In this document: one piece after another, positions 3,267-48,839 of the stretch
How the letters are laid out: each line of letters starts with the position of its first letter
Numbering within the stretch: the stretch's first letter is position 1
Assembly (NCBI GenBank): GCA_018825785.1
Contig: JAHKAY010000006.1
Location: 42,332 to 106,331, forward strand
Length of the DNA: 64,000 nt
DNA from: Chloroflexota bacterium
GTDB lineage: Bacteria > Chloroflexota > Dehalococcoidia > JACVQG01 > JAHKAY01
Direction of reading: 5' to 3'
Notes under the pieces: generated by a model
Told to the model about the DNA's origin: nothing
The model's database searches: none
The model's input: only the letters and a program-made list of their open reading frames with translations
Program-made: the position numbers and the translations under genes

Positions 3267-4022
3267 TCAGACGAGGCCGGAGGCCTTCAGCTTCTCCAGG
3301 ACAGCATCGGAGTAGTCCAGGTTGGTGTTGACAAAGCGGACATCCTCCATCTCTTCCAGGCTCTCCAGCAACTTCAGGTTCTGGATGGCGGTCCTCTCCT
3401 CCACCATGACGGTGGAACGGGGCACCAGAGAAACATCCGAGGCGGTTATCTTCAGGTTCTTGGCCTCCAGGGCCCGGCGCACCTTCTCCAGGTCGTGGGG
3501 TCGGGTATAGACCTCGATGAGCGCTTCCTCGGTCTTCACATCCTCGGCCCCGGCATCTATGGCCTCCAGGGCCGTCTCCTCCGGCGTGGTGGTTTCAGCG
3601 GTAATAACCCCCCGGGACTCAAAGAGCCAGGCCACGGCGCCGCTCTCGGCCAGGCTTCCGCCGTGGCGGGATAAGACATTGCGCACTTCCTGGATAGTGC
3701 GGTTGCGGTTATCGCTGAGGGCCGCCACCATGATGGCCACCCCGCCGGGGCCATAGCCCTCCAGGGTAAGCTCGACCAGGTTGGCCCCCTCCGCCCCCCC
3801 CACCCCCCTCTGGACGGCCCTCGAGATGTTGTCAGCGGGCATATTCACATCCCGGGCCTTCTGGATGATAAGGCGCAGGCGCACATTGGTCTGGGGGTCC
3901 GCCCCCCCCTGGCGGGCAGCGATGGCCAGCTCCCGGGAGAGCCTGGAGAACAGCGCGCCACGCTTCTGGTCGGTGACGCCTTTCGCCCGCTTTATCGTAG
4001 ACCACTTGGAATGTCCGGACAT
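3267..4022 (-). CDS. yebC: YebC/PmpR family DNA-binding transcriptional regulator
   Basis: MSGHSKWSTIKRAKGVTDQKRGALFSRLSRELAIAARQGGADPQTNVRLRLIIQKARDVNMP is the family signature. I place the start at the internal ATG at 4022 (MSGHSKW) rather than the track start at 4061. Confidence 0.9.
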   Translation of the reverse strand: MSGHSKWSTIKRAKGVTDQKRGALFSRLSRELAIAARQGGADPQTNVRLRLIIQKARDVNMPADNISRAVQRGVGGAEGANLVELTLEGYGPGGVAIMVAALSDNRNRTIQEVRNVLSRHGGSLAESGAVAWLFESRGVITAETTTPEETALEAIDAGAEDVKTEEALIEVYTRPHDLEKVRRALEAKNLKITASDVSLVPRSTVMVEERTAIQNLKLLESLEEMEDVRFVNTNLDYSDAVLEKLKASGLV

Positions 4023-4068
4023 CTTCCCCCTCCCTCGCCCAGATTCTAGCACTTTTGTCAAGTGCCCT

Positions 4069-4076
4069 CAATGACC
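4069..4076. repeat. 8-bp direct repeat CAATGACC, left copy (putative target-site duplication)
   Basis: The identical octamer recurs at 4750-4757. Each copy abuts the outer end of an inverted-repeat arm. Confidence 0.65.
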
Positions 4077-4749
4077 GGTTCTTATGCCTCTTAGTGTATC
4101 GTGGTATTTGTCTCTTGTCGTCGCTGTTATAATGGGCGTGATGTTTGGGTGGGAGATAGGCTTCGGTGTAGCCTTTCTAGTGGCTGGTTTCGGCTTCATG
4201 AGTGCAGGATACATCTGCTGGGGGATAGTTCTTCTCATTCCTGGTATTGGTCTAGCCGTTACAAGCTATCTTCGTATTCACAGCAAAGTCGGGGTTGGGA
4301 TAGACCTATCAGATTTCAAAGGAGAGTATTTCCAGCGCACCAATATCCCTAGTGAGTATCAGTTTTCAGGGACGATTGAGGTAAAAGTCCCTAATGCGGT
4401 TGCTGTCCGTGAAGTGTATCTTGACATCCTCATTGAAGGCAAAAGTATACGAGCCAATCTGATGTCAGATATGGAAGGTTTTGGCGAAGGCTATACTCTG
4501 TCGCCATCCAAGCCATTATTCAAACGAATAGCCTTTCAGTTGACTAGCACAATACCAATAGATACACCGCCTAAACAAGGCACTCTCCACTTTATGACCA
4601 CGGATTGGGAGAGAACAAAGGTCGTCAGCCTAAAATATGAGGCATATATGCATAAGAACCGCTGACGTGGCAGGCATCAAGGCCCCTTACAAGACATGGC
4701 CTGATTTGGTGAGGGCCGACAAGTGACTACACCTAGACGCATAAGAACC
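4077..4749. mobile_element. non-autonomous TIR-bounded cassette (MITE-like, 673 bp) carrying one cargo ORF
   Basis: The left end GGTTCTTATGC (4077-4087) is the exact reverse complement of the right end GCATAAGAACC (4739-4749). The arms continue imperfectly, matching at 8 of the next 11 positions (19/22 in total). The element is flanked by the 8-bp direct repeat CAATGACC. Hand-counted G+C inside is 42-52%, versus more than 60% outside. No transposase is present. Confidence 0.6.
4084..4665 (+). CDS. hypothetical polytopic membrane protein (193 aa), cargo of the TIR cassette
   Basis: ORF track entry. The N-terminal ~75 aa are strongly hydrophobic (3-4 helices: LSLVVAVIMGVMF, GVAFLVAGFGFMSAGYICWGIVLLIPGIGLAV). 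The rest is a beta-rich soluble domain. The ATG lies inside the left repeat arm. The last codons and the stop cover an internal third copy of the repeat (4650-4661). Confidence 0.55.
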   Translation: MPLSVSWYLSLVVAVIMGVMFGWEIGFGVAFLVAGFGFMSAGYICWGIVLLIPGIGLAVTSYLRIHSKVGVGIDLSDFKGEYFQRTNIPSEYQFSGTIEVKVPNAVAVREVYLDILIEGKSIRANLMSDMEGFGEGYTLSPSKPLFKRIAFQLTSTIPIDTPPKQGTLHFMTTDWERTKVVSLKYEAYMHKNR

Positions 4750-4757
4750 CAATGACC
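4750..4757. repeat. 8-bp direct repeat CAATGACC, right copy (putative target-site duplication)
   Basis: See 4069-4076. Confidence 0.65.
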
Positions 4758-4784: not shown

Positions 4785-4813
4785 TTGACAGGGTGGGAGA
4801 AGGCCCCTAAAAT
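4785..4813 (+). promoter_or_regulatory. sigma70-type promoter for yceD-rpmF-fab operon
   Basis: TTGACA (4785-4790), a 17-nt spacer, then TAAAAT (4808-4813). It lies 21 nt upstream of the yceD ATG at 4834. Confidence 0.6.
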
Positions 4814-4833: not shown

Positions 4834-5295
4834 ATGCGCTTTGATGTAGGGGAGCAGCTGAGGGAGCCCGTGGGCACCATCCACACCTATAGCCTGGAAG
4901 AGAGGATGGGCCTGTGTGAAGGGGAGGAGTTCCCTGTCGCGGGCAGGTTGAATTTTATGCGCACCTCCCAAGGCCTCCTGATAACGGCCAACCTGGAGGC
5001 CAGGATGGAAGCCTCCTGCAACCGTTGTCTGGACAGTTTTACACTTTCCGTCCCCTTCCATATTGAGGAGGAGTTTTTCCCCACCTCGGACCCCTGGAAG
5101 GGAGGCAGGCTGGCGACCCCGGAGGACGCCTTCACCATAGATTCGCACCAGGTGCTGGACTTGACAGAAGCCCTCAGGCAGTATATCCTTCTGCAAATGC
5201 CCATGAAGCAAGTCTGTCGGCCCAGTTGCCTGGGCCTCTGCCCCCGCTGCGGGCACAACCTCAACCTGGGCCCCCATTCCTGCCCAAGGGACTAA
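4834..5295 (+). CDS. yceD: YceD/DUF177 family protein (large-subunit rRNA accumulation protein)
   Basis: 153 aa. The C-terminal CRPSCLGLCPRCGHNLNLGPHSC zinc-ribbon-like motif and the conserved position immediately upstream of rpmF support the call. Confidence 0.8.
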   Translation: MRFDVGEQLREPVGTIHTYSLEERMGLCEGEEFPVAGRLNFMRTSQGLLITANLEARMEASCNRCLDSFTLSVPFHIEEEFFPTSDPWKGGRLATPEDAFTIDSHQVLDLTEALRQYILLQMPMKQVCRPSCLGLCPRCGHNLNLGPHSCPRD

Positions 5296-5328: not shown

Positions 5329-5526
5329 ATGGCCCCTTTACCCAAGAAAAGAACTGCCAGGGCCAGACAGGGAGAAAGGCGAAGCCATCTCCACCGCGTG
5401 AGCTCCGCTCTCAGCCCGTGCTCTCAGTGCCACACTCCCAAGCTACCCCATCACGCCTGTCCCACCTGCGGCTACTACAATGGGAGGCAAGCAGTAAAAA
5501 TAAAGGGGAAGGGGAAAAAGGGGTAG
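5329..5526 (+). CDS. rpmF: 50S ribosomal protein L32
   Basis: 65 aa. MAPLPKKRTARARQGERRSH...CSQCHTPKLPHHACPTCGYYNGRQ shows the paired CxxC motifs. Confidence 0.92.
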   Translation: MAPLPKKRTARARQGERRSHLHRVSSALSPCSQCHTPKLPHHACPTCGYYNGRQAVKIKGKGKKG

Positions 5527-16208: not shown

Positions 16209-17753
<1,545 letters not shown>

Positions 17754-17773
17754 CTACCTCAGGGCCTTGTGCT

Positions 17774-26321: not shown

Positions 26322-29102
26322 ATGAGGCTCAAAGGCCTTCTTTTCATCCAGAGGACAGCCCGCCGCCTTCAGGACCATGAAAACCTCCGGGTGGCCCTAC
26401 TCTATGCCCTGCTCATCGCTGTGGCCTATCCCCAGGTGGTCTTTATGGGCAAGACCCTGGTAGCCTCCGTCTATTACCCCCATGGGGTAGTGGCGGAGGG
26501 CCCCTACGGTTACCTGGGCAGAAGGATAGAGAACACCTTCAATCTGGACCTGGCCAGCCCGGCCTATTACGAGTTTCCTGTTAACCGCCTGGTGGGTGAG
26601 ATATACCGCCGGGGCCAGCTCCCCCTCTGGAACCCCTATCAGGCGGCGGGGACACCTCTGGCCGCCCAGTATAGCAGCCGGGCCTTCTTCCCCTACCAGA
26701 TTGCGGAGGATATCCTGCCTCCCTGGACCTGGGACTATTTCCTCCTGGGCCGGCTGTGGATTGCGGGGTTTCTTACCTACCTTTTCCTCAGGGCTCTTTC
26801 CCTCTCGCCAGCCAGTTCCTTCCTGGGAGGGGTCTTCTACATGTTCTCGGGGAGCCTGGTCTGGTTTATCAACCTGGAGCAGATGGCCAATGTGGCTATG
26901 CTGGTGCCGGGCCTCCTCCTGGCGACGGAGAAGCTGGTCCGAAACCAGGGGGGCAGATATATCGCCTGCTCCGCCCTGGCCTTTGGCCTGGTCCTCCTAG
27001 CGGGACAGCCGGAGACGGCCCTGTATTCCCTGGCCCTGGCCGCTGCCTATTTCCTTTTCCGTGTCCTCCGGGCAGGGGAAGGGGTAAGAGCAATATTAAG
27101 GCAAGGGGGGAGATATGTCTTTTCCTTTGGGCTGGGGCTGGGCCTCTCGGCGCCTCTGACCTTGCCTTTTATAGAGTTGATGGGAAACTCTTTCCATGTC
27201 CATCCGCCGGGGGGCCCGGTGGGTATTCAGGGTCCCATCCCGTATGCCTGGTCTGTCTCATTGCTCGTCCCCACCTATTTCCAGGAGCACACAATTTTCA
27301 GGGAATTCCCCCAGACTGGCATCTGGGACTTCCTGGGAGGCTACCTGGGGGTGGTGGTCGTCTTTCTGGCCTTCCTGGGACTCCTGTGCAGGGGAAGACT
27401 GGGGGCCTACGGCCTTTTCTTTTTCCTGGCCGGCCTTGTGGTCCTGCTGAAAAACTTCGGGGTGCCCCCGGCGAAATGGCTGGGCTATCTGCCCATCTTT
27501 GACCAAGCCTGGAGCGACCGGTGGGCCTCTCCGGCCTGGGCCCTTTCTTTCGCCGTAGCCGGGGCTATCGGCCTGGAAAGCCTGGGGCGAGAACCCGGGC
27601 CGGGGATGAAAGGTGGCATCTCCGCAGGTAGGCTGCGTCTCCTGGGGGTGGGGCTGGTCCTCCTTGGCCTGGGCCTGGCCTGGGTCATCCTCAGGCCCAG
27701 GCTTCTCTCACTCCCAGGTCCCCTTACTTTGAAAGGCCAGCTGGTCGCGGCCTACTTCCAGGCCCTCTCCCTGGGGGCGGGAGGCACAGCTATTACCGCC
27801 TCCTTCTTCCCCAGGGAAAAGAGGGGCGGGGCCTCTGTCCTTTCTGTGGCCGTAGCCCTGGCCCTGGTGCTTTTCCTGCTCATCGCCCTGGCCCTGGTCT
27901 CCCCACCCCCCTTCCCCGGAGAAGGGGGCCTGGTGGCCATAGTAGCCCTGACGACAGCCTCTATCCTGGTCTTCTCCCTTCAGGCGGGAAACCGAAAGGC
28001 CGCCTGGGGGATGGGAGCCCTGGCCGTCCTGGAACTCTGGTTCCATATTCCCAAAGGCTACAATATCTCCTGGCAATATCTGACCCTCATTCCCCTTCTT
28101 ATCGGTCTGCCCCTGGTATTCGCCCTGGCCAGGGGGAAGGGGCGCTGGGCCGTCCTTTTTGCTCTGGCACCTGTGTTGTCTTATATCATCATCGATGCCA
28201 CGGCCCCAAAAGGCCTTCCCCAGCGCTATGACCCCTTTACCGAGGCACCCTATGTCCAGTTCCTGAGGGAAAAGGCGGGCTATTACCGGATAGCTGGGGG
28301 TGATGGGGTGCTGATGCCGAACTATGCCGGCGCCCTGGGGGTCTACGATGTGCGGTTCATCAACGCCCTATCGGTGAACTCCTACCAGCACTATGCGGAG
28401 AATAGCCTCCTCCCGGGGCCCCATACGGTGCCTATAGACAGGCTCTGGTTCACCGGCATCCCGGATTACCTGAAGCCTGAAGAGTCGTCTTTCTATCAGG
28501 AAATCCAGGAACGGGCCTCTTTCTACTCCTTCCTGGGGGTGAAATATATCCTGGCTCCATCACCCGTCTCCATTGATATGCCCCTTGTCTATGACGGTGA
28601 GGCGAAGGTGTATGAAAACCCTTCTGTCCTCCCTAGAGCGTTCCTCGTCTACCAGGTGGAATACGCCTCCTCCTACCAGCAAGCCCAGGAGGCCCTGAGC
28701 CGGCCCGATTTTGACCCGCTCTGCCGGGTGGTGCTGGAGCAGGAGGCTTCCTTCAGCCCCCAGGAAGGCCGGGGGACTGCCCGCATCCGAGAATACCAGC
28801 CCAACAGGGTGGTCATGGAGACGCAATCGGAGACCCCTGGGATTCTGGTCCTCACCGATGTCTTTTATCCCGGCTGGACAGCCTATATAGATGGCAAGGC
28901 CGCCAAGATATACAGGGCCAACGGCCTGGTCCGGGCGGTGATGGTGGACAAGGGGGACCACACCGTCGTCATGAGCTACTTCCCCCGCAGTCTTGCCTTG
29001 GGCCTGGCTGTTGCCCTTCTTGCTGGGGTGGCCTGTTTGGCCCTGATGTTCAGGAAAAGGAACCAAAAGGGCCTTTCCGGTTCCTTACAACTCTTGGCAT
29101 AA
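26322..29102 (+). CDS. YfhO-family polytopic membrane glycosyltransferase (GT-C-like)
   Basis: 926 aa with many TM helices. The C-terminal block VLTDVFYPGWTAYIDGKAAKIYRANGLVRAVMVDKGDHTVVMSYFP matches the YfhO C-terminal signature as I remember it. Confidence 0.7.
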   Translation: MRLKGLLFIQRTARRLQDHENLRVALLYALLIAVAYPQVVFMGKTLVASVYYPHGVVAEGPYGYLGRRIENTFNLDLASPAYYEFPVNRLVGEIYRRGQLPLWNPYQAAGTPLAAQYSSRAFFPYQIAEDILPPWTWDYFLLGRLWIAGFLTYLFLRALSLSPASSFLGGVFYMFSGSLVWFINLEQMANVAMLVPGLLLATEKLVRNQGGRYIACSALAFGLVLLAGQPETALYSLALAAAYFLFRVLRAGEGVRAILRQGGRYVFSFGLGLGLSAPLTLPFIELMGNSFHVHPPGGPVGIQGPIPYAWSVSLLVPTYFQEHTIFREFPQTGIWDFLGGYLGVVVVFLAFLGLLCRGRLGAYGLFFFLAGLVVLLKNFGVPPAKWLGYLPIFDQAWSDRWASPAWALSFAVAGAIGLESLGREPGPGMKGGISAGRLRLLGVGLVLLGLGLAWVILRPRLLSLPGPLTLKGQLVAAYFQALSLGAGGTAITASFFPREKRGGASVLSVAVALALVLFLLIALALVSPPPFPGEGGLVAIVALTTASILVFSLQAGNRKAAWGMGALAVLELWFHIPKGYNISWQYLTLIPLLIGLPLVFALARGKGRWAVLFALAPVLSYIIIDATAPKGLPQRYDPFTEAPYVQFLREKAGYYRIAGGDGVLMPNYAGALGVYDVRFINALSVNSYQHYAENSLLPGPHTVPIDRLWFTGIPDYLKPEESSFYQEIQERASFYSFLGVKYILAPSPVSIDMPLVYDGEAKVYENPSVLPRAFLVYQVEYASSYQQAQEALSRPDFDPLCRVVLEQEASFSPQEGRGTARIREYQPNRVVMETQSETPGILVLTDVFYPGWTAYIDGKAAKIYRANGLVRAVMVDKGDHTVVMSYFPRSLALGLAVALLAGVACLALMFRKRNQKGLSGSLQLLA

Positions 29103-29103
29103 T

Positions 29104-30684
29104 TTGGGTCATGCCCGACCGGACCCATCCTCAGCCCCAGGCCAAAGAGGGTTAACCTTGAAGAACCACAAAATAGTGCCCCTGGACGAACTGGCGCAAA
29201 TAGTCTCCCAGTGCAAAGCAGAGGGCAAGAAGGTAGTCCACTGCCACGGCGTCTTTGACCTCCTGCATCCCGGACACATCCTGCATTTTCAGGCCGCCAG
29301 GGGCCTGGGGGATGTCCTGGTGGTTACCATCACCCGGGACGCCTATGTGGACAAGGGGCCGGGAAGGCCGGTGTTCAAAGAACGCCTCAGGGCTGAATCT
29401 CTTGCCGCCCTGGAGGTCATAGACTATGTGGCCTTCAATGACTGGCCCACGTCGGTAGAGACGATAAGAAAGCTCAGGCCCGATATCTATGCCAAGGGCA
29501 GTGACTACCGGCACCCCGAGGACGATCTTACGGGCAAGATTAAAGAGGAAGAACAGGCCATCCTCTCCGTTGGGGGGAAGGCCCATTTCACCGACGAGCT
29601 AACCTTTAGCTCCACCAGCCTGCTCAATGCCCATTTCAGCGTCTACCCGGAGGCGGCGGAGAAGTTCCTGAGGGATTTCCGCCAGAGGTATTCCGCCGAG
29701 GAAGCAATCAAATGGTTCCAGAAACTCCTTCCCTTGAAAGTGCTGGTCTTGGGGGACACCATCATCGATGAATACCATTACTGTGTCCCCATGTCCAGGT
29801 CCCCCAAGGAAAACCTCATCCCCGCCAAGTACATTTCAGAGGAGACCTTTGCCGGGGGCATCCTGGCCTCAGCCAACCACGTAGCGGGTTTCTGCGCCGA
29901 TGTCCACCTGCTCACCTGCCTGGGCATTCAGAACAATTACGAGAAATTCATCCTGCAACACCTCAGGCCGAATATAAAGGGGAAGTTTTTCTACCGGGAG
30001 GATGCCCCTACCGTTGTGAAACGGCGCTTTGTTGACCCAGCCTTCCTGAGCAAGATGTTTGAGGTCTGTTTCATGAACAGCCACGAATTGCCCCCTGCCG
30101 TGGCCAAACAAATAGAAGGCTATCTGAATGCATGCATATCCCAATATGACCTGGTAGTAGTGAACGACTTCGGCCATGGGTTTATGACCCAGGAAATAAT
30201 AGATGTTGTGTGTGAGAAGTCCCGCTTCCTGGCAGTGAATGCCCAGACCAATAGTGCCAACATGGGCTTCAATCTTATTACCAAATATCCCCGGGCCGAT
30301 TATGTCTGCCTTGATGAGGCCGAGGCCCGCCTGGCCTGCCACGATAGGACGGGGGACCTCAGGGAGATAAATACAATGCTGGCCAAAAGCTCAGGGTGCA
30401 GTAAGGTGGCTGTCACCCAGGGGCACAAGGGATCACTGGTCTATGACAGGGAGGGGGGATTCTTTGAGATCCCCGTCTTTTCCCTGGAAGTAAAGGACAG
30501 GGTTGGCGCCGGCGATGCCTATTTTTCCATCACCTCCCCCTGCGTGGCGGCGGGGTTCCCTGGGGACCTGGTGGGGTTTATTGGCAATGCGGTAGGGGCC
30601 CTGGCCGTCCGCATCGTGGGCAACAGGACCCCCGTGGAGCCTGTTCCCCTTTTCAAATTCATCAAGGCCCTTCTTGCAGCCTAA
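29104..30684 (+). CDS. bifunctional nucleotidyltransferase / PfkB sugar kinase (HldE/RfaE-like with swapped domain order)
   Basis: 526 aa. The N-terminal cytidylyltransferase-like domain is VVHCHGVFDLLHPGHILHFQAARGLGDVLVVTITRD...KGPGRPV. The C-terminal PfkB kinase domain is VLVLGDTIIDEYHYC...VKDRVGAGDAYFS. The track start is TTG 29104. The true start is uncertain. Confidence 0.7.
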   Translation: MGHARPDPSSAPGQRGLTLKNHKIVPLDELAQIVSQCKAEGKKVVHCHGVFDLLHPGHILHFQAARGLGDVLVVTITRDAYVDKGPGRPVFKERLRAESLAALEVIDYVAFNDWPTSVETIRKLRPDIYAKGSDYRHPEDDLTGKIKEEEQAILSVGGKAHFTDELTFSSTSLLNAHFSVYPEAAEKFLRDFRQRYSAEEAIKWFQKLLPLKVLVLGDTIIDEYHYCVPMSRSPKENLIPAKYISEETFAGGILASANHVAGFCADVHLLTCLGIQNNYEKFILQHLRPNIKGKFFYREDAPTVVKRRFVDPAFLSKMFEVCFMNSHELPPAVAKQIEGYLNACISQYDLVVVNDFGHGFMTQEIIDVVCEKSRFLAVNAQTNSANMGFNLITKYPRADYVCLDEAEARLACHDRTGDLREINTMLAKSSGCSKVAVTQGHKGSLVYDREGGFFEIPVFSLEVKDRVGAGDAYFSITSPCVAAGFPGDLVGFIGNAVGALAVRIVGNRTPVEPVPLFKFIKALLAA

Positions 30685-30696
30685 AGAAAGGGAAGC

Positions 30697-31683
30697 ATGA
30701 CATCGGAGAAACATATCCTGGTAACCGGTGGCTGTGGCTATGTAGGCAGCATCCTGGTCCCCAAGCTGGCCAGGGAATACAGGGTCACGTTGATAGATAG
30801 CATGATGTTCGGCAATCACCTGCAGGGTGTGGAGAATGTCACCACTGTAAAGGGCGATATCAGGGACTATACTCTGATGCGTTCCCTCCTATCCTCTTGC
30901 ACCGATGTCATCCACCTGGCTTCCATAGCCAATGACCCCTGCTCTGAGCTTGACACAGCCATGACCCAATCAGTAAACCGGGATGCGGTGGAGCATCTGG
31001 TAAGAGCTGCCAAGGAGCAGGGCGTCCGGAGGTTCATCAGCGCCTCATCCAGTGCCGTATACGGCGTAAAGGAAGAGGAATCGGTGACCGAAGACCTCCC
31101 CCTCGCCCCCCTCACCCTCTACGCGAGGCTCAAGGCCGAGACAGAGAGAATCGTGGCCAGCGCCGCCGGCAGGGATTTCGTCACCGTTTCCATCCGGTCA
31201 GCAACTGTATGCGGTGTCTCACCCAGAATGAGATTTGACGTAATTGTCAATATGATGGCCAAGATGGCCATCGCCGGCGGGGCGATAACCGTTCATGGCG
31301 GCGACCAGTATCGGCCCAATGTCCATATTGATGACATCACCGACCTTTACCTCTTCCTCCTGGAAACCCCGGCGGAGAAGATAGGTGGCCGGGTGTTCAA
31401 CGCCGGGGCCAAGAACCACACCGTCCTGGAAATAGCCCAGATGGCTCAGGAGGAGGCCGGTGGGATAATCTACCTGGATAGCAACGTCACGGACAACCGG
31501 TCCTATCGTATATCATCGGGGCTGATAAGAAGAGAGCTGGGCTGGGAGCCCCGGAGGACGATTCGGGATGCCATAAAGGACATCAAGAGGGCCTTTGACG
31601 GGGGTATGTTCCCCGACCCCGATGACGATATCTTCTACAACATCAGGACCATGAAAGCTCTTCAGCCGAGCGATAAACGGTGA
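30697..31683 (+). CDS. NAD-dependent epimerase/dehydratase (SDR)
   Basis: 328 aa. HILVTGGCGYVGSILVPKL...SSSAVYG...YARLKAETE shows the Rossmann and YxxxK motifs. Confidence 0.75.
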   Translation: MTSEKHILVTGGCGYVGSILVPKLAREYRVTLIDSMMFGNHLQGVENVTTVKGDIRDYTLMRSLLSSCTDVIHLASIANDPCSELDTAMTQSVNRDAVEHLVRAAKEQGVRRFISASSSAVYGVKEEESVTEDLPLAPLTLYARLKAETERIVASAAGRDFVTVSIRSATVCGVSPRMRFDVIVNMMAKMAIAGGAITVHGGDQYRPNVHIDDITDLYLFLLETPAEKIGGRVFNAGAKNHTVLEIAQMAQEEAGGIIYLDSNVTDNRSYRISSGLIRRELGWEPRRTIRDAIKDIKRAFDGGMFPDPDDDIFYNIRTMKALQPSDKR

Positions 31684-32642
31684 CGAACAAGGAATTCCAC
31701 CTGAATCTTTGCCGGATGATGCTTCTGATTCGGCGCACCGAAGAGAAGATTGGTGAGCTCTATCCAGAGCAGGAGATGAAGTGTGCAGTGCACCTTTCCA
31801 TTGGCGAGGAGGCCTCGGCGGTCGGTGTTTGCGCCGCCTTGAGAGGGGACGATGTAATCTACAGCACTCACCGCTGCCATGCCCACTATCTGGCCAAGGG
31901 CGGAAACCTCAAGCGCATGGTGGCCGAACTATATGGAAAGGCCGCAGGCTGTTGCCGGGGCAAGGGCGGCTCCATGCATCTGGCTGACCCCGAGGTTGGG
32001 ATGATGGGCTCTTCCGCCATTGTAGCCGGGTCCATACCCCTGGCTGTGGGCTCGGCCCTGGCCTTCAGCATGAAAGGGAATGACAGAGTGGCAGTGGCCC
32101 TTTTCGGCGACGGCGGGGCGGAACAGGGCTCTTTCACGGAGTGCCTTAGTTTTGCTTCTCTGAAGAGTTTGCCTGTCATATTCGTTTGCGAGAATAACCT
32201 GTACGCTACCCATACGCATATTTCAGCCCGCCAGTCTAAAGACAACATCCACCAGCGGGGCGAGCCTTACGGGGTTCCCGGCACTCAAATAGACGGGAAC
32301 GATGTGCTGGCAGTCTATGAGGCTGCTTTCCAGGCCGTGGAACGCTGTCGTTTGGGGAAGGGCCCTTCTCTACTGGAGTGTCGCACCTATAGGTGGAGGG
32401 GGCATGTTGGGCCTGACTATGACTATGACCTGGGCTACAGAAGCAAACAGGAACTGGAGGAATGGATGCGCCGATGCCCCATTTTGACTTATGAAAGGAG
32501 TCTGGTCAGTGCTGGGATTTGCAGCCAAAGCGACCTTGACTTGATTAGGGAAGAAGTGGATGAAGAGGTCGCCAGGGCTGTAACCTTCGCGAAAAGCAGC
32601 CCGGAGCCGGAGATGGACGAGCTTCTGCAGGACGTCTATTAG
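31680..32642 (+). CDS. thiamine-diphosphate-dependent 2-oxoacid dehydrogenase E1 component, alpha subunit-like
   Basis: 320 aa. Its ThDP motif is ALFGDGGAEQGSFTECLSFASLKSLPVIFVCENNLYA. It has a GTGA overlap with the upstream SDR gene. Confidence 0.8.
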   Translation: MTNKEFHLNLCRMMLLIRRTEEKIGELYPEQEMKCAVHLSIGEEASAVGVCAALRGDDVIYSTHRCHAHYLAKGGNLKRMVAELYGKAAGCCRGKGGSMHLADPEVGMMGSSAIVAGSIPLAVGSALAFSMKGNDRVAVALFGDGGAEQGSFTECLSFASLKSLPVIFVCENNLYATHTHISARQSKDNIHQRGEPYGVPGTQIDGNDVLAVYEAAFQAVERCRLGKGPSLLECRTYRWRGHVGPDYDYDLGYRSKQELEEWMRRCPILTYERSLVSAGICSQSDLDLIREEVDEEVARAVTFAKSSPEPEMDELLQDVY

Positions 32643-32645
32643 GTC

Positions 32646-33722
32646 TTGTCCATGAAGGAGAACCAGGCAATCCGGCAGGCTAAATACGTAGAGGCGATTG
32701 GTGAAGCCCTTGTTCAGGCCATGGAATGCGACGAGAGAGTTTTCGTCATGGGCATTGGGGTGGATGACCCCACCGGTGTCTTCGGCAGCACCCGGCCTGC
32801 CTTCAAGAGGTTCGGCAAGAAACGCGTCTTCACCATTCCTCTCTCGGAGAACGCTATCACTGGTGTGGGGATAGGTGCTGCCCTCTCGGGGCTTCGCCCG
32901 ATAATGGTCCACGCCAGAAACGACTTCCTGCTGCTGACCATGGACCAGTTGGTCAACCATGCCGCGAAGTGGAGCTACATGGCGGGCGGCCGCATGAAGG
33001 TTCCTTTCACGATTCGTGCCATCATTGGTAGGGGATGGGGCCAGGGTCCGCAGCACTCGCAGAGCCTCCAGGCCCTGTTCGTGCACACACCCGGCCTGAA
33101 AGTTGTCATGCCGGCTACTCCCTACGATGCCAAGGGTTTGTTGCTAGCCAGCATTGGGGATGATTGCCCGGTCATTTTCATTGAACACCGGAGGCTTTAC
33201 GACACCGTGGGACCGGTCCCAGAGGAAACGTACACCGTCCCTCTGGGGAAAGGCGCAGTGCGGCGTGAGGGAAGAGATGTCACGGTGGTGGCAAGCTCCC
33301 TGATGGTGCTGGAAGCCTTACAAGCTTCGCAACTTCTGCAGAGCGATGGCATAGCTGCTGAGGTAATTGACCTCCGCACCCTAAGCCCTCTGGACGATGA
33401 ACTGGTCTTTGACTCGGTTAGAAAGACTGGAAGGCTGGTGGTGGCGGACACAGGCTGGGAAACCTGTGGCGTTGCCGCTGAAGTGTCTGCCCGGGTAGCC
33501 AGCAACGTGTTTGGTTCCTTGAAGGCCCCCATCAGACGGGTGTGCCTCCCGAATTCACCAACTCCCACCTGTCCCAGCCTGGAAAAGGAGTTTTATCCCG
33601 GTGCCGAAGATATTGCTGCTGCGGTGAGAACGGTCGTGGGGAGGGGGAAAGAGCCCATGCGGCCTCGTGCTTCAGCCCGGACCCAAGAGTCGTGGGACAA
33701 GGGATTTACAGGCCCATTTTAG
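32646..33722 (+). CDS. 2-oxoacid dehydrogenase E1 component, beta subunit-like (transketolase-type Pyr and C-terminal domains)
   Basis: 358 aa. EAIGEALVQAMECDERVFVMGIGVDDPTGVFGSTR...IPLSENAITGVGIGAALSG...TPYDAKGLL supports the call. Confidence 0.8.
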   Translation: MSMKENQAIRQAKYVEAIGEALVQAMECDERVFVMGIGVDDPTGVFGSTRPAFKRFGKKRVFTIPLSENAITGVGIGAALSGLRPIMVHARNDFLLLTMDQLVNHAAKWSYMAGGRMKVPFTIRAIIGRGWGQGPQHSQSLQALFVHTPGLKVVMPATPYDAKGLLLASIGDDCPVIFIEHRRLYDTVGPVPEETYTVPLGKGAVRREGRDVTVVASSLMVLEALQASQLLQSDGIAAEVIDLRTLSPLDDELVFDSVRKTGRLVVADTGWETCGVAAEVSARVASNVFGSLKAPIRRVCLPNSPTPTCPSLEKEFYPGAEDIAAAVRTVVGRGKEPMRPRASARTQESWDKGFTGPF

Positions 33723-33744
33723 CTGGAGGATGCCATGATTCCGG

Positions 33745-34269
33745 TTGTCAGAAGGCTGTAATCTGGGGATGCAGGTCAAGGACCATCTCGTAATCGGCGG
33801 CGTTGCCTCCCTCCTTCTCATTCCGGCCTGGGGGGCGCACAGCCTCATTTTCCTGGCGGCCACGACCCTGGTTGATGGTGACCACTACCTGGACTACCTC
33901 TACCGCAACGGGTTCCAGAATTTCAGCTTGAGGAGAGCCACAAAATTCCACCAGGTCCTTCACGAGATTGCCAAGAGGGACAGCTTCTTCGGGCTAAGCC
34001 TGTGCCACACCGTTGAGTTCCTTCTTTTCTTGGCTTTTCTGCCAATGTGGACTCACTCCACGCTGCTATGGGCCGCTTTCTTTGGCGTCCTCTTCCATCT
34101 GGGGCTCGACTTAGCTCACGAATATCGAGAGGGGGTCCTTTTCAAGCGGGCTCTATCAGTAATTGAATACATCATCCGGTGGAACCGGATGAAGCATAAC
34201 GGTCAGAACCCCGAAGTCCCATATATCCGTGCCCTGGAAGCCATATCGGTGGAGACGACCAAGGGGTGA
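33745..34269 (+). CDS. small polytopic membrane protein; weak resemblance to membrane-bound metal-dependent hydrolases (YdjM/DUF457-like)
   Basis: 174 aa. It has 4-5 hydrophobic segments with His/Asp-rich loops (VKDHLV, VDGDHYLDY, HLGLDLAHEY). The likely start is MQVKDH at 33769. Confidence 0.35.
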   Translation: MSEGCNLGMQVKDHLVIGGVASLLLIPAWGAHSLIFLAATTLVDGDHYLDYLYRNGFQNFSLRRATKFHQVLHEIAKRDSFFGLSLCHTVEFLLFLAFLPMWTHSTLLWAAFFGVLFHLGLDLAHEYREGVLFKRALSVIEYIIRWNRMKHNGQNPEVPYIRALEAISVETTKG

Positions 34270-35018
34270 TGAAGGAGAGTATGAGGCCGTCCATCTCCGT
34301 AATCATCCCTGCTCTCAACGAGGAAAAGGCTGTGGGGCCCACCGTGGAGGCGCTGCTGGCAGCCCTGGACGACAGGTTCAGCCGGTACGAAATCCTGATT
34401 TTCGATGATGGCAGCACGGACGGCACAGGAGACTTGGCGGAAACCCTGGCGACCCGAGACGCAAACATCAGGGTGGTGCACAATCCCAGGAACATGGGCC
34501 TGGGCTACAACTATAGAAGGGGGGTGGAACTGGCTCAGAACGACTACGTGGTCCTTTTTCCGGGGGATAATCAGTTCCCCGCTGATTCCATGGCGGAACT
34601 CTTGCGCCATGTAAGCTGGGCAGACATTATCATCCCGTATCATACCAATGACCGCATCCGACCCTGGCACCGAAGGCTGATTTCCCGCCTCTTCATACTG
34701 ACCATGAACCTCCTGTTCGGACTGGGGGTCAAGTATTACACGGGAACTGTCATCCACAGGAGAGAGTTAATTCGCTCTGTCCCCATCTCGTCCACAGGCT
34801 TCGCGTATCAGGCTGAGGCCTTAACGCGGCTGCTCAGGTCAGGGCACAGCTACCTTGAGGTGGGCATACAAATCCAGGAGAGAGAATTTGGCACCACTAC
34901 TATGTTCAGCTTGAAGAACATCCGGAATGTGCTCACAACTGTGGCCAGACTCTTTGGGGATATCCGCATCCGAGGTGGAAAGAGGTATAACAAGCGCCCC
35001 AAGAGGATAATCCGGTGA
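34266..35018 (+). CDS. family 2 glycosyltransferase (polyprenol-phosphate sugar synthase-like)
   Basis: 250 aa. ISVIIPALNEEKAVGPTVEALL...ILIFDDGSTDGT...NMGLGYNYRRG...PGDNQFP shows the GT-A DxD-type motifs. Confidence 0.8.
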   Translation: MMKESMRPSISVIIPALNEEKAVGPTVEALLAALDDRFSRYEILIFDDGSTDGTGDLAETLATRDANIRVVHNPRNMGLGYNYRRGVELAQNDYVVLFPGDNQFPADSMAELLRHVSWADIIIPYHTNDRIRPWHRRLISRLFILTMNLLFGLGVKYYTGTVIHRRELIRSVPISSTGFAYQAEALTRLLRSGHSYLEVGIQIQEREFGTTTMFSLKNIRNVLTTVARLFGDIRIRGGKRYNKRPKRIIR

Positions 35019-36511
35019 AAATCCTGTTCGTTGTCCAGACTATAGATTTCATTGACCCCATTGGCATGATGCTGATGTCTGCTCTGGCCAAGAAGAAAGG
35101 CCATAGAACCCGTCTGGCAGTCATCAGCCGGGAAAACCTGCTGGATAGAATCGCCGGGCTTAAACCAGACATAGTCGCCTACAGTGCCTCCACGGGTGAG
35201 CACAAATATTACATAGAGGCTAACAAGGTAGTTAAGGCCAGGTTCCCTCATATCTTCACCATCATGGGTGGGGCCCATACTACCTTCTATCCCGAGTGCA
35301 TAAGTGAGAGCACCCTGGACGCGGTCTGTGTGGGTGAGGGGGACGAGGCCTTCCCCGAGCTACTGGGGGCCCTGGAGAGAGGGCAGGATATTTCCGGAAT
35401 TCGGAATATCGTCACCCGCGCCGGGCAAAGGAATGGCCTCCGGCCTCTTTTTGAAGACCTGGACAGCCTGCCCTTCCCCGATAGGGAGCTATTCTATAAG
35501 ACCACAGAGATGGGGCAGTTCCCCCTCAAGAGCTTCATGGCCTCCCGGGGGTGTCCTTATCCCTGCACCTACTGCTTCAACCATGCCTTCAGGAAGCTCT
35601 ACCGGGGCATGGGCAAGCTGGTCCGAAGGCACTCGGTGGACTACGTCATAGAAGAGGTGGCCCAGGTAAAGAGGCGGTATCGTCTGGATGTGGTGAAGTT
35701 CTACGACGATATCTTCGCCTACCGGGTGGATGACTGGCTGGAGGACTTTGCCAAAAAATACAGGAGGGAGATAGGCCTCCCCTTCCATTGCCTCACCAGG
35801 GCGGACCTGATGACGGAGGATGTGGCCAAATTGCTCAAGGAGGCAGGCTGCTTCTCCATCAGCATGTCCATTGAGGCGGGGAACCCCCAGTTCCGCAATG
35901 AAGTCCTGAAGCGAAACATGACCGATGAGCAGATCATCCGCGCCTTCCATATCTGCCGCAAATCTGGCATCAAGACCTTCTCCAACAATATCATTGGCCT
36001 TCCTTATGCCACGATACAGAATGAGATTGAAACCCTGGACCTGAACCTCAAATGCAAGGTCTCGTATGCCGAGTTCCCTATCTTCCACCCCTATCCCAGG
36101 ACAGAACTGGGTGACTTCTGTATTGAGAAGGGGATATGGAAGGGCAACTATGCCCAGCTCCATATGTCCTATATGAACCGTTCCCCCCTTTCCTGTTTTG
36201 CCGAGAAAGAAAAGGCCGTGCAGAAGAACCTGGCCGAGCTGGGCCTTCTCGTCATCTGGTTCCCCTTCCTGAGGAACCTGGTAGTGAAGCGGCTCATCTA
36301 TCGGCCCCACACCAGACTCTTCCTCTGGGCTTATGTCCTAGCCAAAGCGTATCTGGTGCGGAAGCGAGTTTATCCGGTGAAGTTGAAGGTAGGGGACGTG
36401 GTCAGGCTCCTTCGCAAGACGTTCAGTCTAGAGACCTTCAAGCATAGCGATGAGCAGCTTCTCATCGATAAGGGAAGCCCGCGAAGGAACAGTCAATGCC
36501 AGGAGCTGTGA
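35015..36511 (+). CDS. B12-binding-domain radical SAM enzyme (class B)
   Basis: 498 aa. The N-terminal Rossmann-like B12 domain (KILFVVQTIDFIDPIGMMLMSALAKKKGH) is followed by SRGCPYPCTYC (CxxxCxxC). It has a GTGA overlap with the GT2 gene. Confidence 0.8.
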   Translation: MKILFVVQTIDFIDPIGMMLMSALAKKKGHRTRLAVISRENLLDRIAGLKPDIVAYSASTGEHKYYIEANKVVKARFPHIFTIMGGAHTTFYPECISESTLDAVCVGEGDEAFPELLGALERGQDISGIRNIVTRAGQRNGLRPLFEDLDSLPFPDRELFYKTTEMGQFPLKSFMASRGCPYPCTYCFNHAFRKLYRGMGKLVRRHSVDYVIEEVAQVKRRYRLDVVKFYDDIFAYRVDDWLEDFAKKYRREIGLPFHCLTRADLMTEDVAKLLKEAGCFSISMSIEAGNPQFRNEVLKRNMTDEQIIRAFHICRKSGIKTFSNNIIGLPYATIQNEIETLDLNLKCKVSYAEFPIFHPYPRTELGDFCIEKGIWKGNYAQLHMSYMNRSPLSCFAEKEKAVQKNLAELGLLVIWFPFLRNLVVKRLIYRPHTRLFLWAYVLAKAYLVRKRVYPVKLKVGDVVRLLRKTFSLETFKHSDEQLLIDKGSPRRNSQCQEL

Positions 36512-36523
36512 AAGGAGGCAAGA

Positions 36524-37678
36524 ATGAAGGTGGGGTACTCGTACCTGCTTCAGCAGTTTGATGTCCGGCCAGGCAAGATGAAAGTGTCCTATATGGACCT
36601 TCCCAGGGGGACCAACGCCACCGAAATCCTCCGGGCTCTTCGGGAGCAGCTCAAAGTCTGTAACTTTACGCTGGGCCCGGAGGTAGCCGAGTTTGAGGCG
36701 AAGTTCGCCGCCCTGCACGGGACCAAACAGGCCATAGGGGTGAATTCAGGGACAGATGCGCTTTTCCTTACAATGAAGGCTGTGGGCATTGGGCCCGGAG
36801 ATGAGGTTATCACTGTTCCCAACAGCTTCATCGCCACAGCAGCAGCCATCGCAAATACAGGAGCCCGGCCTGTCTTTGTGGACGCGGGGGATGATTACAA
36901 TATCAATCCTGACCTGATTGAAGAAGCTGTCACGCCGCGCACCAGGGCCATCCTCCCTGTGCACCTTACGGGAAACCCCGCCGATATGCCCAGGATAATG
37001 GAGATAGCGCACAGGTACGGACTGCTGGTAATTGAAGATGCGTGCCAGGCAGTGAGCGCTTCTATCAATGGAAAGCCCGTCGGTTCCTTTGGCATCTCCG
37101 GTTGTTTCAGCCTGCACCCGCTCAAAAATCTCAACGTCTGGGGGGACGGTGGGGTGCTCACTACCGACTCTGATGAGCTGGCCGAGAAACTCCGGTTGAT
37201 GAGAAATCACGGCCTGAAAAACCGGGACGAATGCGAATTCTTCGCCTACAATAGCCGGCTGGATACAGTTCAGGCGATTGTTGCCTTAAGACTTATGCCT
37301 GCTCTGGAGGCCGCCACCGAGGCCCGCATCAGGCACGCTCGGGTCTATGATGAGGCCTTTTCGCAACTGGGCGAGTTGATCAAGGTGCCTCCCCGCAAAG
37401 CTCAGGTGAGGCAGGTGTTCCATACATACGTAGTTCAAGCCAAGGATAGAGACAATCTGTATGAGTATCTCTGTTCCAATGGCGTAGAGGCCAAGATCCA
37501 TTATCCCATACCCATTCATCTTCAGAAGGCATCGCGTTATCTTGGCTACAAGGAGGGCGACTTCCCCCTGTGCGAGGCTCAGGCGAGGTCCATTATCACC
37601 CTTCCCGTGCACCAGCATCTAACAGAGATACAGCTGGAATACGTCGTTGGCAAGGTAGGAGAATTCTACGGAGAATGA
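36524..37678 (+). CDS. DegT/DnrJ/EryC1/StrS-family PLP-dependent sugar aminotransferase
   Basis: 384 aa. FTLGPEVAEFEAKFAALHGTKQAIGVNSGTDALFLTMKAVGIGPGDEVITVPNSFIATAAAI supports the call. The PLP lysine context is FSLHPLKNL. Confidence 0.88.
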   Translation: MKVGYSYLLQQFDVRPGKMKVSYMDLPRGTNATEILRALREQLKVCNFTLGPEVAEFEAKFAALHGTKQAIGVNSGTDALFLTMKAVGIGPGDEVITVPNSFIATAAAIANTGARPVFVDAGDDYNINPDLIEEAVTPRTRAILPVHLTGNPADMPRIMEIAHRYGLLVIEDACQAVSASINGKPVGSFGISGCFSLHPLKNLNVWGDGGVLTTDSDELAEKLRLMRNHGLKNRDECEFFAYNSRLDTVQAIVALRLMPALEAATEARIRHARVYDEAFSQLGELIKVPPRKAQVRQVFHTYVVQAKDRDNLYEYLCSNGVEAKIHYPIPIHLQKASRYLGYKEGDFPLCEAQARSIITLPVHQHLTEIQLEYVVGKVGEFYGE

Positions 37679-37996
37679 TGGAAATTGCTGCAGCTAATTG
37701 CGTCACGATGTCATGTCCGGGGCATATGCGAGGTGGTCTGGGACTCGGTCTTCTACCAGCCTCAGGCTGCTGAAGGCCAACGGAGGGCCCTTGGAACCAG
37801 CCAAAACAATGTGGCCCGAGGCAAAGAGATGCATGCTGAGTGGCGGCAAGGAACAAAGCGCTCAGCATTTGGGAGACTTCAGGCTGCTTGGACGGCCTAG
37901 TATAAGCTCGCTATGGAATATTTCTAGCGCATTGAGGCCCGTGTTCTGGCTGTTCTGGGAAACTGGCATAGCTGGCCGCCGCAGGCTGGAGCCGGC

Positions 37997-40147: not shown

Positions 40148-40152
40148 GCGAT

Positions 40153-43100: not shown

Positions 43101-43335
43101 AGCATATGAGTTAGACACTACTGATGGGTTCCACGTCTACAGGCTAACCATCGTTGAAGATACCCTGAAGGCGTATGTTGACGGGATGGAGGTGGCGATG
43201 GTGACACTGGCCAACAGTAACAAGGAGAAGAAGATACTGTTTGGGGATTTCAGCCCCGAAGAGGGCGAGAATATATATGCCCAGGTTGAGTACCTGGCCT
43301 ATTATGTGGGTGGGGCCGTGTCCCCCAGACCATGA
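40153..43335 (+). CDS. very large polytopic membrane protein (1060 aa) with three tandem ConA/LamG-like ectodomain repeats
   Basis: ORF track entry. The N-terminal ~400 aa are multi-TM. They are followed by a linker domain and three repeats of 130-190 aa sharing the blocks FDN..GS, DG.R..K..FF.D, DTTD.FH.YR, YVDG..V, LFGD.S...GEN and Y(L/V)AY. Confidence 0.55.
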   Translation: MGWKMEKMKRLSRLREEMLGGLPKHLLFLALVAFRVFGLLQHEMWRTEAQLPLMVRDSQSFGQLLHWQSYGREHILWPSMLYGMKMLGLDAVVAGQWLHLGLSIILLGVIFYGIPRLPLIIRASVGSSFFLMYEYSAITRVYGVTALLLAIFVMLELRIRRGILWKALTLFFMSLSSNVGLVLAIALAVYLFAKRSEEQWHTRAMGAGIVALGIGLSIATALPPADLSEAPWLVAYRADASRYWGIPHLLPTTARMFLDGFLYIPIMTSPHWYEPTSWSEPQSLLSGVISEYKVATYLIGLAVIALAVRFLWHLFRISKPIALGVATLWGGNLLAWSVMHPGYTRHFGILLLGTLGLFALAADMRKGFSVKGMTIIVVVILAIQSASGFWAVYAEVGDSFSQSKNLAQWWQANYPEETPYVFPDHVGATLSLYTGGYAYSLASEREEAVSFVRESEEFAQTFSPALISNLDLRGDSPFLITNFPYHALLDGGKTIVEPVRAFQSAVAFNESFWVHRVRHGSESELWTFKFLPFEGQFWTVETSQHNWQQNVIEQPEPRFDNETGSAIEIKIKFLEAPNTDPNALVFQLLDGRRPLKVSFFGDGFRIQYDVLRTRYEIDTTDDFHVYRFTLRRNTVEAYVDGKKVGSSYLSAETEDKRVLLGNVGTRGENIAAQIKYVAYSASGALPPEGEQEPEEAEIWTMFTDMQMSPDAPPAAWAGNGTFSVKSVVDGVLTVATRGTDLGHFSQLVPEFDNAVGSTAEVRLKLLDGPKTDSDGAMLSISDGLREAKIAFFTDHINILDQSEFKRFSWMDTTDDFHTYRIAIIGDSLRVYVDGAEVAAATLRQQATGRQVLFGDFSTSAGENMGVRVDYLAYSVNGAKAPDGSSIKTVEGGEEEQDIPWTSAKGGFVIRTVGKENEPAGTGYPIKEFDNSLGSTLEVKMRILEAPASGFNGGALSLIDGQREGKLSFFNDRVEIRDVNDFRQAYELDTTDGFHVYRLTIVEDTLKAYVDGMEVAMVTLANSNKEKKILFGDFSPEEGENIYAQVEYLAYYVGGAVSPRP
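41824..43314 (+). repeat. three tandem coding repeats (LamG-like modules) inside the 1060-aa ORF
   Basis: The repeats begin at about 41824 (RFDNETGS), 42397 (EFDNAVGS) and 42928 (EFDNSLGS). They end at about 42200, 42783 and 43314 (YVAYSASG, YLAYSVNG, YLAYYVGG). Confidence 0.7.
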
Positions 43336-43347
43336 TTGGAGGGACTC

Positions 43348-44829: not shown

Positions 44830-44867
44830 TAACATGGCTGGCTCGAAATTGACCGGCCACAGAAAGG

Positions 44868-47919: not shown

Positions 47920-47978
47920 GGGCGGTTAGCTCAGCGGTTAGAGCGCCTGCTTCACACGCAGGAGGCGGTGGCTCAAAG
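47920..47978 (+). pseudogene. tRNA-Val(CAC) fragment: 5' acceptor arm to mid T-loop; the 3' T-stem and acceptor arm are missing
   Basis: The sequence is GGGCGGT-TA-GCTC-AGCGGTTA-GAGC-G-CCTGC-TTCACAC-GCAGG-AGGC-GGTGG-CTCAAA... The D arm and anticodon arm (anticodon CAC) fold canonically. No CCACC or ACCGCCC complement follows. TATAAT lies at 47901-47906 upstream. G+C drops immediately after. Confidence 0.7.
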
Positions 47979-48117
47979 CTAGCGTCTACCGATTTAGCTA
48001 CGAAATTGGGGCGACAAAGCAAGAGGTCTTTTGTTTTACTCCTATTAGTCTTGATGGTGGCCCTTCCGGTCTTCATCGATCGCCTCCTATGCATTATTTT
48101 GAACTTCTGCGAGAGAC

Positions 48118-48324: not shown

Positions 48325-48400
48325 TAGTCAAGATGAGAACGTCGCCCCAATCTGAACCACAACGCCCAGCACCGACGCAGGCGTCCGGCCCAAGACATGG

Positions 48401-48759: not shown

Positions 48760-48839
48760 GGTCTGGGGCTCTCCTTCGGCATCGGCCAGGCTGGAGGTGG
48801 AGGTGCTCAAACGGGGGGGGAGAGGCTGAGGGAGCTGGT

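Follow-up and report, generated by a model that had tools for sequence, protein, structure and literature searches.

A 673-bp transposon insertion between yebC and yceD of a Chloroflexota bacterium, probably a gene-carrying cassette derived from the IS6 family

In a 64,000-nt stretch of the genome of a Chloroflexota bacterium (contig JAHKAY010000006.1; hereafter the window, to whose full length all coordinates refer), a 673-bp block of low G+C content at positions 4077–4749 lies in the spacer between the genes yebC and yceD and carries a single gene, for a small predicted membrane protein. Comparison with close relatives demonstrates that this block is a real transposon insertion. We further consider it highly probable that the block is a non-autonomous mobile insertion cassette (MIC) derived from the IS6 family in the sense of ISfinder, and from the branch of that family whose transposases are long and carry a zinc finger. 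Loci from other genomes and metagenomes with which it was compared are designated by L-numbers throughout.

The insertion, its empty sites and its relatives

Contigs of relatives were found by way of the YceD protein encoded in the window, and three of them, L072, L073 and L074, encode YceD proteins with 89, 86 and 73% identity respectively. In all three the yebC–yceD spacer is approximately 130 bp long, is without the block and is collinear with the flanks in the window, and when the left and right flanks of the window are aligned on the spacer sequence of these relatives they abut. The junction at the empty site holds a single CAATGACC in L072 and L074 and the variant CAATCGCC in L073. The window has two copies of CAATGACC, one at 4069–4076 (+), immediately to the left of the block, and one at 4750–4757 (+), which abuts the outer, complete right end of the element and not the internal end described below. 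The original prediction, made from the letters of the window alone, had anticipated a single copy of this octamer at empty sites in close relatives; all three relatives are indeed empty, with the single copy in two and the variant in the third. Taken by itself an 8-bp direct repeat would be weak evidence, because this particular 8-mer is over-represented in the window (six occurrences against 2.2 expected), and it is the empty sites in the relatives, together with the recurrence of the same architecture at other loci, that settle the biological reality of the duplication.

The block is bounded by terminal inverted repeats, the left one (IRL, GGTTCTTATGCCTCTTAGTGTA) at 4077–4098 (+) and the outer, complete right one (IRR, TACACCTAGACGCATAAGAACC), the working right end in the insertion event, at 4728–4749 (+). 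Their outermost 11 bp are GGTTCTTATGC at 4077–4087 on the left and GCATAAGAACC at 4739–4749 on the right, and a repeat finder extended the inverted repeat to 22 nt at 86% (19/22 complementary positions between the two arms). This 11-mer occurs at only three sites in the 64 kb, namely the two outer ends and an internal copy, at which 4650–4661 is a perfect 12-nt complement of 4076–4087; with one mismatch allowed, four matches were found against 0.68 expected. The G+C content of the element is 46.5%, compared with 62.6% in approximately 8 kb of flanking DNA, and lies within the 45–56% of the loci that carry its relatives, whereas the host stands at 63%. According to the listing of open reading frames (ORFs), a single ORF at 4084–4665 starts inside the left arm and no transposase ORF is present in the element, and a tblastn search with the transposase of L034 (see below) found no full transposase anywhere in the window. 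These results agree in every particular with the layout first proposed for this DNA: the 8-bp repeats and 11-bp termini, the 19/22 match of the longer arms, the low G+C content against more than 60% outside, the single ORF, the third copy of the arm and the lack of a transposase gene were all recovered.

The same gene, at 40–54% protein identity, is found in the same type of cassette at other sites in other genomes. The L001/L002 cassette is 602 bp long and is flanked by a perfect duplication of GCCCAAAC, the L155 cassette is 593 bp long with a perfect duplication of CTAGCGCG and the L156 cassette is 587 bp long with a perfect duplication of TGCCTGAG; at L155 both ends carry GGTTCTCTTGC, a co-varying A-to-T change. 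At L003 the ends are present without a duplication, and at L004 a diverged copy of the gene is accompanied by neither a duplication nor recognizable ends, the ends having decayed. The search for further copies that the original prediction had proposed was thus productive, as L001, L155 and L156 have the same terminal repeats and different perfect 8-bp duplications, and with the window these represent four independent insertions of the cassette family. The IRL-type end is found on the gene-carrying cassettes of L001, L003, L155 and L156 and also on full-length insertion sequence (IS) elements, and the IRR of the window matches that of the full-length IS elements L102, L103 and L050. In addition, the same ends delimit another type of cassette, at L016:95–551, which is 457 bp long, contains a different gene and is flanked by a perfect duplication of AACTAATA. 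The ORF of this L016 cassette (118–126 aa, helical) is preceded at one end by TGTTATACT and a GAGGAGG ribosome-binding site and is read inward from there; it resembles a small inward-facing ORF beside the IRR in L034.

Transposase-bearing partners and family assignment

A scan with a 21-nt degenerate pattern of the ends, made on one genome per species, returned 66 stretches, most of which are chance matches at gene starts of the type ATG-x-L-G-V. Eight of the 66 were assigned to the family: L016; L021, L034 and L064, by transposase and/or duplication; L040 and L050, by sequence; and L014 and L037, in which only a similar end was seen. L021, from a Dehalococcoidia metagenome-assembled genome (MAG), is a 1931-bp element with the same ends, a 7/8 duplication, a 195-aa membrane ORF and a transposase, and in L034 and L064, from MAGs labelled Chloroflexia, the same transposase adjoins the right end. 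The L034 transposase (312 aa) scores 133.9 bits with the NCBIfam IS6 family model NF033587, for which the cut-off is 125, matches Pfam DDE_Tnp_IS240 (PF13610) at 2.4e-20 and has an N-terminal zinc-binding domain of the IS1/IS1595 type. The models for IS1, IS481, IS3, IS66 and IS256 were far below their cut-offs with this protein, and only IS6 passes.

A metagenome scan with a trimmed alignment of L034-type transposases gave 80 loci, in 34 of which GGTTCTYAYG ends surround the gene. The complete elements, which come from Chloroflexota genomes and metagenomes and have ends of the form GGTTCTYATGC..., measure 1.55–2.1 kb, with the exception of L108 at 3.2 kb, and the partner transposases closest to that of L034 (at least 52% identity) are 299–316 aa long. 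Perfect 8-bp duplications flank seven full-length elements (L075, L084, L086, L093, L095, L103 and L109), and L021 and L088 have a 7/8 match. Nine of the 17 full-length two-ended copies have no matching duplication (0–4/8), among them L108, which has a 9-bp repeat, and L091, whose right flank runs off the contig. These elements are the partners with the same terminal repeats that the original prediction had suggested looking for, and since they encode IS6-family DDE transposases they also bear out its attribution of the footprint to DDE-type transposition.

L040 and L050, two contigs of the Chloroflexi MAG NC_groundwater_1282, each end after running approximately 140 bp into an IS of this clade, the former at the IRL and the latter at the IRR. 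This IS looks multi-copy because both contigs break inside the repeat, the usual assembly sign, and it is the best candidate for the parent type of the window element because it has the GGTTCTTATGC variant and a transposase stop beside the IRR. In L108:127–3358 (3.2 kb) an extra 425-aa ORF occupies the 3′ slot on the opposite strand and, judged by eye from its N-terminal motif IYCGDN, may encode a DNA methyltransferase-like protein. The end in L014 and L037, from Methanospirillum and Methanomicrobiales MAGs, reads GGTTCTCATGCATTTAAGTGTATAGAC with an identical outer flank and is very like a Chloroflexota IRR; no transposase of the L034 type was detected in the examined stretches of these two loci, and the likeness may reflect either an archaeal relative or mere chance.

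Members of the IS6 family generate 8-bp duplications (PMC6807381, PMC7986276), and the published IS6/IS26 terminal-repeat consensus is GGTTCTGTTGCAAA (PMC6807381). The ends studied here agree with this consensus at 11 of 14 positions, those of the window reading GGTTCTTATGCCTC and GGTTCTTATGCGTC and those of the full-length partners GGTTCTCATGCAAC. The 8-bp duplication, the related repeats that start with GG and a cognate IS6-type DDE transposase together place the window element in the IS6 family as ISfinder uses the name. With IS26 and IS6 sensu stricto the clade shares these features, including an enzyme of the DDE_Tnp_IS240 type, and also the many copies without duplications that are expected of cointegrate formers. 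It falls outside that narrower group, however, in having transposases of approximately 300 aa (299–316 aa) with an N-terminal zinc-binding domain, compared with 220–250 aa, and C or T instead of G at position 7 of the repeat, and it further differs in that its elements are 1.55–2.1 kb long with two variable slots and show TTGTCAAG at a fixed distance from the end.

The absence of a transposase gene makes the window element a cassette and not an IS. In ISfinder usage an MIC consists of IS ends flanking one or more passenger genes without a transposase, an example being MIC231 of the Bacillus cereus group. The window element likewise has the terminal repeats of a known IS and a duplication of the length typical of the family around one coding gene, has no transposase gene and is presumed to be mobilized in trans. 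It differs in that it is derived from the IS6 family and has a second, dead internal end with a transposase 3′ fragment, and its gene is probably the slot ORF of the parent IS (see below) and not a foreign passenger. Miniature inverted-repeat transposable elements (MITEs) are non-coding by definition and usually multi-copy. The window element resembles a MITE in its small size, its lack of autonomy, its terminal repeats and its target duplication, but most of it is a coding gene under selection, with an ORF of 174–193 aa and a ratio of non-synonymous to synonymous substitution (dN/dS) of 0.23–0.51, and there is one copy in 64 kb.

For the IS6 family, two gene-less MITEs and one passenger-carrying member, ISDsp3, are on record (PMC7986276, PMC6807381). 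ISDsp3, from Dehalococcoides sp. BAV1, is 1456 bp long and has a 319-aa transposase, terminal repeats of 28/36 and an 8-bp duplication (PMC7986276, PMC6807381). It is probably the nearest catalogued IS to the present elements, which it resembles in its Chloroflexota host, long transposase, 8-bp duplication, long terminal repeats and extra ORF beside the transposase gene; however, it is reported to be without an intact zinc finger, which the partners described here possess, and the window element has no transposase.

Several observations weigh against this account of the element as a whole. Harmer and Hall argue for excluding the long zinc-finger branch from IS6/IS26 proper and stress that no experiment exists for it (PMC6807381). 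Position 7 of the terminal repeat is not the conserved G. The ends at L003 lack a duplication and the gene at L004 lacks recognizable ends, as noted above. Finally, tblastn found no full-length partner in the window, which makes mobility in the host today no more than presumptive.

Given the IS6 assignment, movement of the cassette would have depended on a cognate DDE transposase acting in trans on both outer ends (approximately 22–26 bp, GGTTCTYATGC...GTGT). This enzyme would have inserted the cassette into the yebC–yceD spacer with an 8-bp staggered cut, giving the duplication of CAATGACC at a distance of 6 nt from TTGTCAAG. By extrapolation from IS26 (PMC6807381), the movement may have proceeded via a copy-in cointegrate that was resolved by host recombination, a route that fits because many copies of the family have no duplication. 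We infer this cointegrate chemistry for the zinc-finger branch by analogy. Mobilization in trans is likewise a presumption, which gains indirect support from the four independent insertions with their different duplications and from the partners whose ends are identical.

Whether the cassette can move at present is a separate matter that does not compete with the assignment to IS6. The cassette, whether it arrived by transposition or on transferred DNA, may be a stranded fossil, now immobile for want of a cognate transposase in the genome, and to this we would give somewhat less than an even chance. The lack of a transposase and the single copy of the ends within 64 kb, the strong G+C contrast, which suggests a foreign origin, and the decay already evident in the inner right end are what would be seen in such a fossil, whereas both outer ends are intact (19/22), the duplication is perfect and the sites in L072–L074 (73–89% YceD identity) are still empty. 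As these three sampled relatives keep empty sites, the insertion is recent.

A composite structure and the origin of its gene

The internal copy of the arm, described in the original prediction as a third arm, is the original right end of an older cassette of approximately 0.6 kb. This degenerate end (IRR′, 4639–4660, +) retains only its outer 13 nt and corresponds, in alignments, to the genuine right ends of L001, L002, L003, L155 and L156. A 6-bp deletion (GACACC) took the inner half of the IRR′ repeat together with the original TAG stop, and after the loss of TAG the ORF reads on through the dead internal end to a TGA at 4663–4665. The 89 bp beyond the internal copy consist of a transposase 3′ remnant and the full right end. 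The remnant (66 bp, 4661–4726, +) begins at the terminal base of IRR′ and comprises the final 21 transposase codons (ADVAGIKAPYKTWPDLVRADK) plus the stop; it corresponds to residues 292–312 of the L034 transposase, the exact C-terminus, with 67% identity (tblastn, E value 5e-5), and this alignment is the best tblastn match in the window, with the stop in the same place. The layout in L050 is the same, with ...PAEIAGIKLPYRTWTDFIRADK (IRADK), the stop and then 23 nt to the tip of the IS. Read from its sequence, the window copy is a composite of, in order, IRL, promoter, gene, IRR′, a truncated transposase gene and IRR.

The composite would have formed when the older cassette (IRL, promoter, membrane-protein gene and IRR′) was joined to the distal part of a full-length IS, comprising the last 21 transposase codons and the IRR. 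The joint coincides with the final base of IRR′, which makes the action of a transposase its likely cause, and two routes would fit: the small cassette may have inserted into the transposase gene, or an end-mediated deletion may have extended into that gene. The outer IRR would have been the working end, because IRR′ had lost its inner half, and must have been so because the duplication flanks the outer, complete IRR. A separate idea, that fusion between cassettes and IS elements gives rise to new IS variants, was rejected, as full-length elements show no excess of internal end remnants, with five hits in 16 elements against 5.8 expected.

The gene itself (4084–4665, +) fills 87% of the element and encodes 193 aa if translated from the ATG at 4084, inside IRL, or 174 aa from the ATG at 4141. 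Its relatives are few: five were recovered from 5.8 billion proteins by a word-indexed search, and approximately ten true family members from 1.84 billion representatives by a profile search. The latter also brought up giant repeat proteins; these align repeatedly with no more than the final 45 or so residues and were treated as unrelated β-repeat similarity. The dN/dS values between copies given above indicate that the gene is kept by purifying selection. The window protein has no family match in Pfam, NCBIfam or PADLOC. In the AlphaFold model (mean confidence, pLDDT, of 72), three helices, or two if the start is at 4141, precede an eight-strand β-sandwich of approximately 120 aa, and on the basis of these two to three N-terminal transmembrane helices the gene is predicted to encode a membrane-anchored β-sandwich protein. 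A structure search of the kind envisaged in the original prediction was run with Foldseek and did return β-sandwich matches, but only to generic Ig-like, Spo0M-like or ApaG-like folds (E value approximately 1e-4), which provide no functional lead.

An extended −10-like sequence, TGTTATAAT, at 4125–4133 (+), is located 7 nt before the ATG at 4141 and does not vary among the five aligned copies, even in L004, whose upstream frame is broken. The left end of the full-length IS in L040 has TGCTATACT at the equivalent distance, and TGTTATAAT is a probable internal promoter inherited from an IS left end. Initiation at the ATG at 4141, so close to this box, would give a leaderless or near-leaderless mRNA, and the frame from the ATG at 4084 is open in eight of nine homologues; both the promoter and the start codon are putative.

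Every complete partner has an ORF of approximately 110–230 aa between IRL and the transposase gene, often overlapping the start of the latter, and most of these slot ORFs encode at least one strongly hydrophobic segment. By blastp, 48 slot ORFs form 36 mutually unrelated clusters, and scans of approximately ten of them against Pfam, NCBIfam and PADLOC gave nothing meaningful. The nucleotide identity among seven elements (L075, L077, L080, L084, L086, L087 and L088) is approximately 76% over the first 50 bp, at random level for the next 750 bp or so, mostly 75–92% across the transposase gene, low again for approximately 450 bp after it and high at the IRR; the 3′ variable region contains small ORFs. 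Such a profile indicates that the IS clade is modular, with the conserved ends and transposase gene flanking two variable regions.

The window gene has the position, the size and the hydrophobic N-terminus of a slot ORF. Because of these likenesses, and because a −10-like box stands at the same distance, we favour its being an accessory gene inherited from the IS, which we regard as reasonably probable. It is unlikely, although by no means negligibly so, that a host gene was instead picked up as a passenger between two IS ends. None of the transposase-bearing elements sampled carries a homologue of the window gene, and slot ORFs are unrelated both to one another and to the window protein: comparison with the L021 slot protein by hhalign gave a probability of 0.2, and an hmmsearch of the 48 slot ORFs with a profile of the window protein family gave no match. 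The L004 locus, with its diverged homologue and no recognizable ends, could represent an ancestral non-mobile gene, and the argument for inheritance draws on position, size and membrane character only. These points tell against an inherited slot gene and favour capture; however, capture leaves unexplained why the spacing between IRL and the start of the gene equals that of the slot ORFs and why the extended −10 is placed as in the left end of a full-length IS. In addition, almost all homologues for which DNA is available carry IS ends (window, L001/L002, L003, L155 and L156), and the family is tiny and was not found as an ordinary chromosomal gene. The original prediction of a membrane-protein cargo gene is therefore upheld as regards the presence of the gene in the cassette, but this gene is more likely to be an inherited IS accessory ORF than a captured host gene.

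Two other accounts fare much worse. ISL3 ends begin with GGCTCTT and ISL3 elements generate 8-bp duplications, and this is the only basis for considering that family. Derivation of the element, as a MITE or an MIC, from ISL3 or another IS family with 8-bp duplications and ends beginning with GG, such as IS256 or IS1595, is nevertheless most improbable: every transposase-bearing element with these ends has the same transposase that passes the IS6 model, it is with this IS6-type transposase that the remnant in the window element aligns, and an assignment to ISL3 was rejected by the transposase family scan, in which no ISL3 model is among the matches of the cognate enzyme. Practically no weight can be given to a non-mobile origin, from a lineage-specific core gene beside a palindrome that is regulatory or fortuitous and an 8-bp repeat that arose by chance. 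Such an origin has in its favour the over-representation of CAATGACC in the window but is refuted by the empty sites of the relatives; the anomalous G+C content also speaks against it, as does the presence of the same ends around the gene at unrelated loci, where the duplications differ.

Target motif, surrounding DNA and implications

The motif TTGTCAAG is found in host DNA at 4055–4062 (+), 6 nt before the duplicated target, and the empty sites of the relatives have TTGACAAG at the motif position; it appears to be a preferred landmark of the IS clade. Of 67 distinct family end flanks, 18 have the core GTCAA at precisely 14 nt beyond one end (window, L001, L003, L016, L021, L034, L040, L084, L086, L093, L095, L100, L102, L103, L104, L109, L112 and L156; binomial P approximately 6e-39). 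The consensus of the motif is tTTGTCAAG, and the order is motif, 6 nt, 8-bp duplication and end, usually IRL. Among the elements counted with an intact duplication the motif is at the fixed distance in 11 of 13, and in L108, with its 9-bp repeat, it is 15 nt away. Target choice by this IS clade looks sequence-guided and polar, and the two IS6 papers searched make no mention of sequence-guided target choice for IS26. A role for TTGTCAAG as a −35 box, paired with the element end or with a −10 in the restored target, was rejected, the spacing being unfit by eye.

The neighbouring genes are yebC (3267–4061, −) on the left and yceD (4834–5295, +) and rpmF (5329–5526, +) on the right. A consensus scan alone identifies a promoter-like site of yebC at 4043–4071 (−), TTGAGG-17 nt-TAGAAT preceded by TG, of which the −35 overlaps the left copy of the duplication and stays intact. 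The same kind of scan places a promoter-like site of yceD-rpmF at 4785–4813 (+), with TTGACA (4785–4790)-17 nt-TAAAAT matching at 11 of 12 positions; it is 27 nt to the right of the insertion, in accord with the landing distance of approximately 27 bp from this −35 that had been proposed originally, and it is kept in the empty sites of the relatives. As both neighbouring promoter-like sites are intact, no effect on yebC or yceD is predicted.

Elsewhere in the window, at 1108–1638 (−), a second orphan gene of low G+C content (49–53%) encodes 176 aa with a hydrophobic N-terminus. It is squeezed in between uvrB and a gene with a molybdopterin-oxidoreductase domain, and the start and stop codons overlap. 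It lacks IS ends and does not resemble the slot ORFs, and neither Pfam nor PADLOC contains a match. Two large blocks of lower G+C content (49–58% against 62–69%), at approximately 29,100–46,050 and 48,000–54,500, are possible genomic islands, and the transposase of the IS clade studied here was found in neither. The first contains genes for sugar-nucleotide and polysaccharide functions, namely a cytidylyltransferase/PfkB fusion, an epimerase, a DegT aminotransferase, two B12-radical-SAM enzymes and proteins with GH16 and F5/8-type-C domains, and the second contains a molybdopterin oxidoreductase with its FAD/FeS partner. A weak tRNA-like Rfam match at 47920–47988 (+), with 35 bits against a gathering score of 29 and not called by ARAGORN, borders the second block; it is perhaps a tRNA fragment that marks an island boundary. 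The PyrR-binding leader (Rfam RF00515, 57 bits) at 17659–17754 (−), upstream of pyrimidine and carbamoyl-phosphate synthase genes, is an ordinary regulatory element. No rRNA was found in the window.

In itself, the cassette is a clean but fairly ordinary example of known mobile DNA and changes no major concept. A bolder reading, which we offer tentatively and do not ourselves expect to hold in full, is that it is one piece of an undescribed IS6-like branch of the Chloroflexota, in which modular slots are swapped wholesale, targeting is guided and polar, and single-slot cassettes are spun off that spread the slot genes. Nearly all work on the IS6 family has concerned IS26 and IS257 in resistance plasmids. 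In the Chloroflexota, its zinc-finger branch comprises diverse elements, of which small accessory ORFs, usually with a membrane segment, are a routine component; the branch also gives rise to gene-carrying cassettes and appears to pick its targets by a motif. For annotation, the low-G+C orphan between two housekeeping operons is thereby explained as IS-borne and not as a host innovation, and its hypothetical protein can be labelled as cargo that an IS6-type cassette brought in. Should the slot proteins act on behalf of the element itself, for example through exclusion, addiction or the control of transposition at the membrane, they would represent a new accessory function for a simple IS.

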